From a virus: a DNA stretch of 64,000 bases. This document shows, one piece after another, positions 55,545-59,360 of this stretch. The stretch's first letter is position 1, and each line of letters begins with the position of its first letter. Both the position numbers and the translations under genes were made by a program. The notes under the pieces were generated by a model. That model had not been told where the DNA came from, made no database searches, and saw nothing but the letters and a program-made list of their open reading frames with translations. The stretch lies in the IMG/VR virus record IMGVR_UViG_3300021961_000021; one strand, given 5' to 3'.

Positions 55545-56624
55545 TCAACCGATGGAAGGAGCAGTCAGAGCAACAGGAGTTGCTTCAACGCTTGCCAGGT
55601 CCAGAGGGAAGTTGTGAGCGTTACGCTCGTGCATCACTTCCATACCGAGACCAGCACGGTTCAGGATGTCTGCCCAGGTGTTGATCACACGACCTTGACT
55701 ATCTTGAATGGACTGGTTGAAGTTGAAACCGTTGAGGTTGAATGCCATTGTGCTAACGCCCAGGGCAGTAAACCAGATACCGACAACAGGCCAAGCAGCA
55801 AGGAAAAAGTGTAGCGAACGAGAGTTGTTGAACGAAGCATATTGGAAGATAAGACGACCGAAATAACCGTGAGCGGCTACAATGTTGTAGGTCTCTTCTT
55901 CTTGTCCGAACTTATAACCGTAGTTCTGTGACTCGTTTTCGGTTGTTTCGCGGACAAGGGAAGACGTAACCAGACTTCCGTGCATAGCACTAAAGAGACT
56001 GCCACCAAATACCCCAGCCACGCCAAGCATATGGAACGGATGCATAAGAATATTGTGTTCTGCTTGGAAGACGAGCATATAGTTAAACGTGCCCGAGATT
56101 CCAAGAGGCATTGCATCGGAGAAGGAACCTTGACCGAAGGGATAAACCAGGAACACAGCAGATGCAGCAGCCACGGGAGCAGAATAAGCAACGCAAATCC
56201 AAGGACGCATCCCCAGACGATAAGAGAGTTCCCATTCACGACCCATATAAGCATAGATACCAATCAGGAAGTGGAAGACAACGAGTTGGAAAGGACCACC
56301 GTTGTAGAGCCATTCGTCTAGCGATGCTGCTTCCCAGATGGGATAGAGGTGCAGACCGATAGCATTAGAGGAAGGAACAACAGCACCAGAGATGATGTTA
56401 TTGCCCCACATAAGGGAACCAGCGACGGGTTCACGGATGCCGTCGATGTCCACAGGGGGAGCACCAATGAAGGCGATGATGAAACAAGTAGTAGCAGCAA
56501 GGAGACAGGGAATCATCAGGACACCAAACCAACCGACATAGAGACGGTTATCGGTAGAAGTGACCCAATTACAAAACTGATCCCACTGTGACTCTTGCCG
56601 TTGACGAGTAAGAGTAGCAGTCAT
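55545..56624 (-). CDS. psbA: photosystem II D1 protein (E130, high-light type)
   Basis: Full D1 with Y161, D170, E189, H190, H198, H215, H272, H332, E333, D342, A344. Confidence 0.99.
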
Positions 56625-56982: not shown

Positions 56983-57265
56983 TCGGAATCATCCTAATCT
57001 TTCTCGGATTATAGACACAGTTCTCTCCTAGTTCGCACAATTTAATATAATATTCAGCTTTGACCTGGGAGAGATCCATATATTGTTTGAGATCTCTCCA
57101 CTCATTACCTGTCTGAACTTGAAGTCTGTATCGTATCCGTGTCACATTAGGAAACCATCTCAATTGATATTTATGCGACGGATACCTCTTCAAATCTAGA
57201 AAGATAATTGTAAGCGTAGTGTGTACGAGCACCGTGGATACCCCATCCAATCCAAGAATAGGCAT
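56972..57265 (-). CDS. hypothetical protein; true start probably near 57160
   Basis: ORF track; 5' part overlaps the upstream gene. Confidence 0.45.
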   Translation of the reverse strand: MPILGLDGVSTVLVHTTLTIIFLDLKRYPSHKYQLRWFPNVTRIRYRLQVQTGNEWRDLKQYMDLSQVKAEYYIKLCELGENCVYNPRKIRMIPNEQ

Positions 57266-57791
57266 AATTCATATACCTTTCGATGGATTTTCCAGGAACA
57301 CGCATCGCTGATTCAATTCGCTTCCACTGAGTTTCATTAGTTAAGTAACGAAGCTGGGTATGAAGTGATGAAGGATCACCACCATAACGGTTAGCGAAAG
57401 AACCAAGACCAATGTACCTGTTAGTTGAGGTCCATTGAATCAAACCATAACCACCATATCTACAAGCATTATACGAGACTCTACTACCACCCTCACAAAT
57501 GTTTGCGTGGAAGTTAGACTCCTGTTTAATGTTGCCCATAATGGCAGCCAACGAGTTTCGATCTCGGATCCCAACTTCTTGGAAATACGCGAGAGCGAGA
57601 CTTTCATTGTGGTTACACCCTTTACAAATTAGTCTTGTCTCTTTGGGTTCTGGAGCAACCTCTCTGGTCGCTGTCTTCTCAGGTACTGATGGAGGTGGAC
57701 CATCCATTTTGTAATTAGAGAATGGCAGTGTTGCCGTACTGGTTGTAACCGTTACCGCAAGGGGCAGGGCTACTGAAAGGAATTGTTGCAC
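57171..57791 (-). CDS. exported lysozyme-like protein (phage tail-tip lysozyme family)
   Basis: Signal-like N-terminus; AAIMGNIKQESNF...GYGLIQWT. Confidence 0.8.
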   Translation of the reverse strand: MQQFLSVALPLAVTVTTSTATLPFSNYKMDGPPPSVPEKTATREVAPEPKETRLICKGCNHNESLALAYFQEVGIRDRNSLAAIMGNIKQESNFHANICEGGSRVSYNACRYGGYGLIQWTSTNRYIGLGSFANRYGGDPSSLHTQLRYLTNETQWKRIESAMRVPGKSIERYMNYAYSWIGWGIHGARTHYAYNYLSRFEEVSVA

Positions 57792-57800
57792 TAAAAATAA

Positions 57801-57916
57801 TAGAACTCTACATCCGAATAGAAGGGGGGTACACCTAACCTCTCAGCAGGCACCTTCCTCGGCTCTAAATCAAATCACATTCTCATAGTAAAAACCCGCC
57901 ACATTGTGACGGGTTT
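57801..57916 (-). ncRNA. candidate structured 5' leader: terminator-like hairpin plus nested multi-stem
   Basis: AAACCCGTCAC/GTGGCGGGTTT; TAGAGC/GTTCTA; CCGAG-GAAGG/CCTTC-TTCGG; GAGA-capped hairpin. Confidence 0.5.
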
Positions 57917-57918
57917 AC

Positions 57919-57947
57919 ATAGTATCAATTATTTAGGTGTTTGTCAA
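57919..57947 (-). promoter_or_regulatory. sigma70-like promoter TTGACA-17-TACTAT with nested CTAAATA
   Basis: Motifs and spacing read directly. Confidence 0.75.
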
Positions 57948-58477
57948 CCCTTCTTCCACGCTTCGCCTTCTGCCTTACGGCGGCGAGCAAGACCTGCTTC
58001 TACGTTGGAACCAGGGTTGCGGTACATATAAAGAGCATCAGGAACTAAGTCCCATTCCTTATTTTTAAGTCGCTTAGTAATGGTATTAAAATCACCACTA
58101 CCGTAGAACCCAGCACCCAAATTATAAGCGAAAGAAAGAAGAGCACCTCTCTTACCATCACTCATTTCATTCCAATGAGGAATCTTTTGAAGTGCAGGAA
58201 TGAATTGCTTCTTGCACTGATCAATGAGAAGTTCATCTGCTTCTGCTTGAGTGAGAGTATCTCCCATTTGGAATGCAGAACCATCTTTCTTACGGGTTGA
58301 ACCCCAACCAATAGTGATTGGAAGTCCACCACTCAGAGGATCGGGATATGCATTTAAATGACATCCTTCAAATTCTTTGATCAATTTGATTCCCATCATA
58401 GGAACCTCACCACTTGCGGCAGCAGGAGCACTACTGCCGCTGGTTACTTTCCCAGAGGTTTGCCACAATGAGGACAT
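57944..58477 (-). CDS. GH24 lysozyme (endolysin); probably C-terminal part of a -1 frameshift fusion
   Basis: LIKEFEG..L.AYPD...TIGWGST catalytic motif; ALLSFAYNLG; GLARRRKAE. Confidence 0.92.
   Translation of the reverse strand: MSSLWQTSGKVTSGSSAPAAASGEVPMMGIKLIKEFEGCHLNAYPDPLSGGLPITIGWGSTRKKDGSAFQMGDTLTQAEADELLIDQCKKQFIPALQKIPHWNEMSDGKRGALLSFAYNLGAGFYGSGDFNTITKRLKNKEWDLVPDALYMYRNPGSNVEAGLARRRKAEGEAWKKG
58416..58453 (-). promoter_or_regulatory. candidate -1 programmed ribosomal frameshift signal
   Basis: In-frame G GGA AAG (58453-58447), spacer TAACCA, stem GCGGCAGTAG/CTGCTGCCGC. Confidence 0.75.
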
Positions 58478-58677
58478 ACATCTCCCGTTGGAGCGGCAGC
58501 AGCAGGTGCTGCAGGTGCTGCTGCACCTTTCTTACCTCTGTAGATTTCTGCCCAATCAATGTTATCTTCCAGATACTTGATAGGGAGATTATCTTCTAAC
58601 CATTGTACTGCTTTGACGTGGTTAGGGTTCTTCTCATCATAGAATTGAAAGAAGTTGTGTAAATCGATACGTGCCAT
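58444..58677 (-). CDS. 77-aa module protein ending in CPHC; N-terminal part of the lysozyme fusion
   Basis: LHNFFQFYDEKNPNHVKAVQWLEDNLP shared with 58689-59360; Ala/Pro linker; GAGGAG SD. Confidence 0.8.
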   Translation of the reverse strand: MARIDLHNFFQFYDEKNPNHVKAVQWLEDNLPIKYLEDNIDWAEIYRGKKGAAAPAAPAAAAPTGDVCPHCGKPLGK

Positions 58678-58688
58678 TTTAGTTCTCC

Positions 58689-59360
58689 TCAATCAAAGAT
58701 GCGACCCCAACCATCGTTGCCACCTGGGCACCAACGATGCTTAAGAACTGCTTTTGTGTAAACGGTTTTCTTACCGTTCTCAACAGGACCACTGTAGTTA
58801 TCATTCAATGAACCATACGGATCATTAACGTAATAACCTTTACCATCAGGTGTCTTACCGATAACAACACACATATGACCACCTGTAGGGTTGGTCAGAG
58901 AACCACGATGTAGGATACCAATAACAACTGGTTTACCTGCATCAAGACTCTTGTCGATATCGGAGAAAGACAAGTTGTAACTAAAATGGGACTTGACACC
59001 ATACGCTTGCAGAACCTTAGTCTGTACAGCGTGGTCAGTTGTGTCACCAATTTCAAATACTTTCTTGACATATTCATCATCGCCTTTAATAGATCCAGGC
59101 TTGAGGAATGCAAGACACATTGCACAGGACGAACTGTTACAAGTTCTATGTGCGTCTCTATAGTTATCTACTTGATTGAAGTAGGGCACATCCAGCACTG
59201 CTGGTGTGGGAGGTTTGGTACGGAAGATAGAAACCCATTCGGTTTCAGAATCATCCATAAACGCTTCTGGAAGATTATCCTCCAACCACTGCACTGCGGC
59301 AACGTGATTGGGGTTCTTCTCATCATAATACTTAAAAAAGTTATGAAGATCTAAAGTCAT
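58689..59360 (-). CDS. C39-like cysteine peptidase with shared N-terminal module
   Basis: LDVPYFNQ...CNSSSCAM catalytic Cys, GGHMCVVIG His, VNDPYG Asp. Confidence 0.85.
   Translation of the reverse strand: MTLDLHNFFKYYDEKNPNHVAAVQWLEDNLPEAFMDDSETEWVSIFRTKPPTPAVLDVPYFNQVDNYRDAHRTCNSSSCAMCLAFLKPGSIKGDDEYVKKVFEIGDTTDHAVQTKVLQAYGVKSHFSYNLSFSDIDKSLDAGKPVVIGILHRGSLTNPTGGHMCVVIGKTPDGKGYYVNDPYGSLNDNYSGPVENGKKTVYTKAVLKHRWCPGGNDGWGRIFD

Follow-up and report, generated by a model that had tools for sequence, protein, structure and literature searches.

A two-part lysozyme gene of a T4-like cyanophage with a probable programmed -1 ribosomal frameshift site

Frameshifting in tailed phages is known mainly from the genes for tail assembly chaperones and from some capsid proteins, and outside the phages the heptamer A_AAA_AAG is that of Escherichia coli dnaX and of IS911. 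A different way of drawing two products from one lysis gene is seen in the endolysins CTP1L, CD27L and Lys170, whose genes give the full-length enzyme and free binding domains by means of an internal in-frame start. Stops beside slippery runs and stems 5-9 nucleotides (nt) downstream are said, from Weiss et al. 1987 and later work, to raise -1 shifting, and the frameshift between G and G-T that makes the tail assembly chaperone of phage lambda is reportedly the subject of Levin et al. 1993 and Xu et al. 2004. The gene for Ms6 LysA likewise yields free binding domains beside its full-length enzyme, through an internal in-frame start (PMC3111421). A review of recoding, in the part covered here, describes G_GGA_AAG and C_CCA_AAG as highly shift-prone in E. 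coli and mentions neither endolysin nor lysozyme (PMC5009743). The PRFect paper includes “lysins” in its list, with a citation of phi-vML3; this lysin (Shearman, 1994) was considered as a precedent and set aside, given that a later paper describes two overlapping genes and not frameshifting. Full-text searches on endolysin or lysin frameshifting, on cyanophages and on S-PM2 returned only tail-chaperone and capsid cases within the literature searchable, and within those bounds we regard a frameshift-made lysis enzyme in a phage as undescribed. Here we present a site that would put this known mechanism in such a new place: a two-part lysozyme gene on the minus strand of a stretch of 64,000 nt (the window) from the IMG/VR virus record IMGVR_UViG_3300021961_000021, which on comparative evidence very probably contains a programmed -1 ribosomal frameshift site.

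The window belongs to a T4-like cyanophage carrying psbA (55545-56624), and among isolates it is closest to DSL-LC02 and DSL-LC03 of the Kyanoviridae (DNA identity about 79%). Relatives of the gene have the N-terminal module and the lysozyme either in two different frames, as in the window (split genes), or in one continuous open reading frame (ORF). The elements of the gene in the window are the following (lengths of proteins in amino acids, aa; of helices in base pairs, bp).

58444-58677, minus strand: 0-frame ORF of 77 aa plus stop, made up of the module (residues 1-47), an Ala/Pro linker and CPHCGKPLGK; the predicted short product.
58537-58677, minus strand: shared N-terminal module, residues 1-47, a predicted small three-helix domain (alignment; AlphaFold2 mean predicted local distance difference test score, pLDDT, 88.5).
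58475-58477, minus strand: ATG in the -1 frame 5' of the heptamer, which gives a 177-aa ORF call; not conserved (4 of 27 distinct sequences).
58447-58453, minus strand: slippery heptamer G_GGA_AAG in 0-frame phase, read from the sequence.
58444-58446, minus strand: 0-frame stop TAA (a “shifty stop”), right behind the heptamer; split relatives always have TAA or TAG here.
58416-58440, minus strand: putative stimulatory stem-loop of 10 bp with a 5-nt loop, 6 nt past the heptamer (folding, covariance model, RNAalifold).
58394-58399, minus strand: ATG ATG (Met-Met), the candidate for a rival start inside the gene; in continuous-ORF homologues both residues lie within the protein.
57944-58447, minus strand: -1 frame part of the predicted long product, comprising the linker VTSGSS...GEVP, the GH24 lysozyme and the stop at 57946-57944.

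The 77-codon ORF (58677-58444) ends CCT CTG GGA AAG TAA, and the heptamer G GGA AAG (58453-58447) stands in the X_XXY_YYZ phase of this frame; relatives have short ORFs (72-80 aa) that end in the same way. A spacer of 6 nt, TAACCA, which includes the stop, separates the heptamer from the stem arms GCGGCAGTAG and CTGCTGCCGC (58440-58431 with 58425-58416; ten pairs, one of them G-U), which enclose the loop TGCTC, and the hairpin region reaches -24.9 kcal/mol (z = -2.76 against dinucleotide shuffles). Read from the heptamer as GGG AAA GTA ACC..., the -1 frame gives the residues G K V T S G S S A P A A A S G E V P M M, that is, the linker VTSGSSAPAAASGEVPMM, with the peptide stretch VTSGSSAPAAASGEVPMMGIK upstream of Met-Met, followed by the GH24 domain (Pfam PF00959, E 9.6e-23, 81.3 bits against a cut-off of 22.3, profile positions 1-125), in which KEFEGC marks the EFEG motif region with the catalytic Glu. 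The coordinates proposed for the ORF, heptamer, hairpin, linker and GH24 frame in an earlier note, which a model had made from the sequence alone, were each confirmed to the base, and the 244-aa module-lysozyme fusion that it postulated agrees with the length of the predicted trans-frame product (75 + 169 = 244 aa). The locus thus combines the marks of a bacterial-type -1 frameshift site, namely a phase-correct heptamer, a downstream structure and an open -1 frame with a conserved product; the lysozyme also lacks a conserved start of its own, although ATG ATG remains in most sequences.

The closest likeness is to lambda G/G-T, which uses the identical heptamer to make a short protein in the 0 frame and, after the -1 shift, a longer fusion with the same N-terminus; the likely logic is, as we suggest here, a fixed ratio of two related products. 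The proteins themselves are unrelated, a tail chaperone there and a cell-wall hydrolase here, and the immediate stop and conserved stem at 6 nt differ from lambda, which is not known to have such a strong stimulator and has its stop farther away. With dnaX (tau/gamma) and the orfA-orfB genes of the IS3 family the site shares a heptamer ending in A_AAG and a downstream stem-loop; in dnaX, however, the shift yields the short product, and an upstream Shine-Dalgarno-like stimulator as in that gene is not evident here, the sole GGAG lying 28 nt 5' of the site and too distant. The multi-product endolysins resemble the window in that one lysis gene gives two proteins sharing a non-catalytic module, but there this is achieved by a second start codon and the module is C-terminal, whereas the module of the window is N-terminal and the choice would be one between termination and frameshifting.

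The short ORF and the lysozyme served as queries for protein-guided searches of IMG/VR, which yielded 160 loci before duplicates were removed. The 25 distinct split junction regions all have the lysozyme in the -1 frame, the heptamer and the immediate stop (a 26th row of the table was a regular-expression artefact and is not counted), while GGGAAAG is absent from all 90 distinct continuous, plain-linker regions; no split locus without the heptamer, and none with the lysozyme in the +1 frame, was present in this deduplicated set. Heptamer, stop, -1 relation and stem are retained together in 27/27 distinct IMG/VR split genes and in 62/62 metagenome cyanophage loci, so that homologues are either continuous or in possession of both heptamer and stem, a point which the earlier note had proposed to check. 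The split form was seen in contigs from about 30 IMG/VR data sets as well as in metagenome contigs, with 58 distinct local sequences; it was found in none of the isolates of the phage collection, and the exact 20-nt pattern of the window had no match in IMG/VR.

The two closest isolates both carry a single continuous ORF of 222-223 aa consisting of module, Ala/Pro linker and lysozyme. This, together with the two short homopolymers within GGGAAAG, could suggest that the window holds a decaying or mis-assembled gene in which a one-base indel in the linker, from mutation or sequencing error, has broken the frame and no programmed read-through takes place. Such an origin is scarcely credible to us, as the same site recurs in about 100 independent contigs (37 from IMG/VR, 62 from metagenomes), and the lysozyme of the split genes is intact, with 89-93% protein identity to the continuous forms. 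Four independent contigs (L016, L017, L098 and L101), with one base differing in the 57 nt past the stop, carry the same heptamer, stop and stem, which excludes an assembly indel, the single-base error that the earlier note had asked about. In a quick IQ-TREE tree of module and enzyme DNA (linker omitted, 121 rows), the split state requires at least nine changes and sits on at least nine separate branches, and the window groups with the continuous-ORF contig L151 (support 99). This scatter indicates either that recombination has carried the homologous cassette from one background to another or that the cassette has been lost on many occasions; in both cases all of its components have been retained, which would not be expected of a harmful mutation.

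The continuous homologues also provide natural counterparts of the predicted long product. Four contigs (L048, L064, L171 and L182) have continuous ORFs of 241-244 aa whose linker carries V-C-x-K-C-G-K/R-G-L/V, homologous to the V-C-P-H-C-G-K of the split genes, and the existence of these CxxC-linker forms means that the long product has equivalents made in frame. Across DSL-LC02/LC03, L048/L064 and phage ACG-2014f the continuous proteins are collinear with the predicted trans-frame proteins, with K-V-T or K-V-E at the junction, but they have no heptamer, stop or frameshift and hence give a single product.

The codons at the junction indicate at which level the site is conserved. Among 28 distinct complete split genes, each of the nine codons before the heptamer varies synonymously, with two to six codons in use (Gly GGT 15, GGC 6, GGA 6, GGG 1; Lys AAA 26, AAG 2; Cys TGT and TGC; Pro four codons), while within it Leu is YTG, Gly is GGA and Lys is AAG in 28/28. 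A search pattern left degenerate at the heptamer positions gave the same answer, all 37 IMG/VR and 62 metagenome cyanophage contigs reading G GGA AAG followed by TAA or TAG. By comparison, 20 unrelated zinc-ribbon genes encoding CPHCGKx[L/F]GK use assorted codons, and heptamer or stop occur in 0/20. The constraint at the heptamer is, as these alignments read, on the nucleotides and not on the peptide.

The stem is conserved in the same set of genes. MAFFT misaligned the 3' arms due to unequal loop lengths, and a covariance-model alignment was therefore used, in which four long-loop sequences are still misplaced. The model, built from six sequences, matches every split locus and no continuous-ORF locus, and 99.5% (24 loci) and 99.0% (57 loci) of the paired cells are complementary, against 24-87% in controls with slid partners; RNAalifold predicts the identical helix. 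Double compensatory changes are present at two of the ten pairs (CG to GC in 8 and 18 cells; GC to AU), and several further pairs switch via G-U. The sequences fall into classes (GCGGCAG.., GGGGTAG.., GGACAGCA.., GGGCAGC..) with loops of 5-16 nt, yet the stem always starts 6 nt past the heptamer. A conserved stem by itself names no function, and stem and stop might serve RNA processing, stability or attenuation, or the frame might be changed by slippage of RNA polymerase, which the A6 and T8 runs at the S-PM2 and S-CAM7 types of site discussed below could in principle permit. We rate this group of explanations as very unlikely, considering that no T run stands behind the window stem, that an Rfam search gave nothing relevant to it, and that the stem is always found at a -1-stimulating spacing beside a phase-correct heptamer; to our knowledge, the runs G3 and A3 are also much too short for polymerase slippage.

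The sequence between the heptamer and the enzyme bears on what we consider the sole serious rival to frameshifting, namely two separate genes, one for the 77-aa protein and one for a 151-aa lysozyme made by independent initiation at ATG ATG (58399-58394) or by re-initiation behind the stop, with heptamer and stem having another purpose or none. The pair of start codons is present in 25/27 distinct split sequences, in the window a GAGG lies 5 nt 5' of it, and module-free lysozymes of 154 aa do exist as genes of their own, for instance in S-SRM01. However, the (G/S)(G/S) D D V P residues that precede Met-Met are kept as protein in the split genes, where the five codons nearest to Met-Met are constrained at the protein level, with changes mostly at third positions (summed entropy by codon position 1.33, 1.87 and 5.01) and Pro in 27/27 encoded by four different codons, and these residues and Met-Met itself are likewise internal to the continuous ORFs; this is the coding pattern that, as far as sequences can tell, frameshifting predicts and a Met-Met start does not. 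The distance from heptamer to KEFEG takes six values (69, 72, 75, 81, 84 and 87 nt), every one divisible by 3, and the -1 relation holds at all six linker lengths. Between heptamer and enzyme, ATG is absent altogether in the lineages L109 (four contigs) and L020, and at the S-PM2-type loci a lysozyme-frame ATG occurs in 0/32. Separate genes would also leave the invariance of GGA and AAG without an account, given that for the same amino acids two and three codons upstream all of the codons are in use. As to starts farther upstream, the -1 frame is shut by a TAA two codons 5' of the heptamer in 13/27 distinct sequences, in which such starts cannot reach the enzyme. The proposal that the lysozyme begins only at ATG 58477 or at the two Met codons, against which the earlier note had set its own reading, thus meets with an ATG restricted to 4/27 sequences in the first case and with constrained codons in the second, and we consider separate genes unlikely.

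Several observations nevertheless weigh against a programmed frameshift. The retention of ATG ATG before the enzyme in most split genes, with the GAGG five bases upstream in the window, means that some independent initiation may take place alongside it. Ala/Pro linkers are GCN-rich and self-complementary, and those of the continuous ORFs fold as well (mean of the best 36-nt window -15.0 kcal/mol, compared with -19.5 kcal/mol for split genes at the fixed position), which indicates that part of the stability of the stem is inherited from the linker and is maybe a by-product. The double compensatory changes are limited to two of ten pairs among sequences that are related to one another, and the whole case is built by comparing sequences. 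The slipperiness of G_GGA_AAG in Synechococcus, finally, depends on the Lys and Gly tRNA set of the host. Lys and Gly are not represented among the seven tRNA genes found in the window between 23553 and 61831 (Ile-GAT, Ala-TGC, Thr-TGT, Val-TAC, Asn-GTT, Ser-TGA, Arg-TCT), and the slipping tRNAs would therefore come from the host. Slippage on A_AAG would be favored in a host with a single Lys-tRNA(UUU).

That ribosomes slip at this site, how often they do so and what for, we infer as follows. Ribosomes would start at ATG 58677 and translate module and linker, and most of them would probably terminate at TAA 58446-58444, giving the 77-aa protein of module, linker and CPHC knuckle. A minority would slip back one base on G_GGA_AAG or, alternatively, the Lys-tRNA in the P site would shift from AAG to AAA while the A site is taken up by the stop codon; this stop, together with the stem that begins 6 nt farther on, would hold the ribosome in place. 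Shifted ribosomes would continue with GTA ACC... and produce the 244-aa protein of module, linker and GH24 muramidase. The proportions, abundant short and minority long product, are suggested by the likeness to lambda G/G-T. As to the purpose, we would guess that lysozyme is thereby supplied at a low and fixed dose, always tethered to the module and made alongside free module.

This suggestion directs attention to the module, which heads three kinds of protein, namely a C39 peptidase, the GH24 lysozyme and a protein in contig L085. The first of these is encoded directly upstream of the lysozyme gene in the window.

58689-59360, minus strand: upstream gene for a 223-aa protein with the ~47-aa N-terminal module and a C39-like cysteine peptidase (ORF; Pfam PF13529, E 6.2e-15; PHROG 3617 and 10051).

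The first ~47 residues of this peptidase are the same module as at the start of the 77-aa ORF. In L085 (2001-2714) the module is joined to a different C-terminal part of 190 aa without a Pfam match. Modeled alone from a diverse alignment of 37 sequences, the module gave with AlphaFold2 the compact three-helix domain listed above; a model of the whole 77-aa product, for which the alignment was shallow, had a pLDDT of 52 and was discarded as unusable. Structure searches with the module model returned no match in Foldseek and an uninformative best Z of 2.8 in VIA, and the sole Pfam match of the 77-aa ORF was sub-threshold, zinc-ribbon-like and placed on CPHCG. We guess that the module serves in targeting, docking or oligomerization. 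A free copy of it could act as a partner or as a competitor of the enzymes that carry the module, a role comparable to that of free wall-binding domains in certain Gram-positive endolysins.

Parallel arrangements are evident elsewhere in the cyanophages, among them the model phage S-PM2, which forms a laboratory system with its host Synechococcus WH7803. In S-PM2, the C39 gene p153 ends GCA AAA AAG TAA, with A_AAA_AAG at positions 2013-2019 of L006 (AJ630128 116220-116226; with the stop 2013-2022 and 116220-116229), an 11-bp stem begins 5 nt downstream of the heptamer, and the lysozyme follows in the -1 frame with no start 5' of its catalytic EFEG. The predicted p153-lysozyme fusion would have about 394 aa; GenBank records of this lysozyme only the 72-aa “putative lysin” p154. 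With the S-PM2 lysozyme as query, A_AAA_AAG was found at 31 distinct loci, S-PM2 included, and C_CCA_AAG at one (L347). The stop is immediate in 30/32 of these and one codon later in 2/32, and 17/32 of the loci, all of which lack a lysozyme-frame ATG, are also without GTG or TTG. In their stems the linker is base-paired to the opening codons of the lysozyme, and both arms change together between classes (CTCTACTCC/GGAGTAGAG, TTCTACTCC/GGAGTAGAA, CCAACTAAC/GTTAGTTGG, CCAACCAAC/GTTGGTTGG and AATCAACACCACA/TGTGGTGTTGATT). In L347 (207-1462), a 234-aa C39 ORF ends C_CCA_AAG TAG, after which come a stem and a linker resembling those of the window (GCGGCAGTAGTGC.., VSGSSAPAAA) and, in the -1 frame, the lysozyme; this locus may link the C39-to-lysozyme with the module-to-lysozyme layouts.

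A third type is represented by S-CAM7 (KU686212), in which the C39 ORF ends GT T_TTT_TTT CCA CAG TAG (L007 1357-1372), the T run is the exact point at which the -1 lysozyme frame opens, and 5 nt on there is a stem of 13 bp. This arrangement was seen in S-CAM7 and two IMG/VR contigs only, most relatives of S-CAM7 having one continuous ORF, and with so few sequences the argument for frameshifting at T_TTT_TTT is weaker. In ACG-2014f, by contrast to the split types, module, C39 peptidase and lysozyme form one continuous protein of 405 aa (PHROG 3617), and here as in many contigs the junction reads ..F D A K V E/T.., matching the predicted trans-frame ..D A K K V T/E..; for S-PM2, trans-frame DAKK-VT corresponds to in-frame QAK-VT in ACG-2014f. 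The DNA of the continuous form, AAA GTA R, and that of the S-PM2 type, A AAA AAG TAR, are two A's apart, and we suggest from this comparison that a single two-A expansion would be enough to produce slippery run, changed frame and stop, showing how such a site can arise in one step. S-CREM1 (L005 1473-2654) has a single 393-aa ORF in the reversed order lysozyme, module, C39 peptidase, which indicates that the cassette is freely shuffled among cyanophages.

Frameshift control in T4-like lysis genes, which the earlier note had expected to be unusual, was instead found to be widespread, as far as the signals indicate, in the wall-hydrolase cassette of T4-like cyanophages. It is possible, though on balance doubtful, that these phages as a group set the dose of the GH24 lysozyme by a -1 shift from the preceding module or C39 ORF at several heptamers (G_GGA_AAG, A_AAA_AAG, C_CCA_AAG and T_TTT_TTT), with the short product acting as a lysis partner or regulator; its single CPHC knuckle might, for instance, pair with that of the long form via zinc or a disulfide after arrival in the oxidizing periplasm. 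If true, such group-wide control would constitute an undescribed translational timer or stoichiometry device for phage lysis. Lysis by cyanophages is poorly understood, and in phages that are abundant in lakes, estuaries and the sea one wall-degrading activity would be coupled to another, or an enzyme to its module, at the level of translation. Frameshifting would also explain a fault of annotation, in that cyanophage lysozymes are entered as short fragments without a start, those of S-PM2 and S-CAM7 as start-less pieces of 72-90 aa. The PHROG “endolysin” families 10457 and 7910 have profiles of ~95 residues, which the window lysozyme matches with its C-terminal half only (~76-149); they look like truncated ORF calls from start-less, frameshift-dependent lysozyme genes.

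Two further features lie past the lysozyme stop in the window.

57890-57913, minus strand: terminator-like hairpin CCCGTCAC-AAT-GTGGCGGG followed by TTTTT, read directly and missing from the scan listing.
57171-57791, minus strand: third wall-hydrolase gene, encoding a PF18013 phage tail lysozyme with a hydrophobic, signal-like N-terminus and a CKGC motif of its own.

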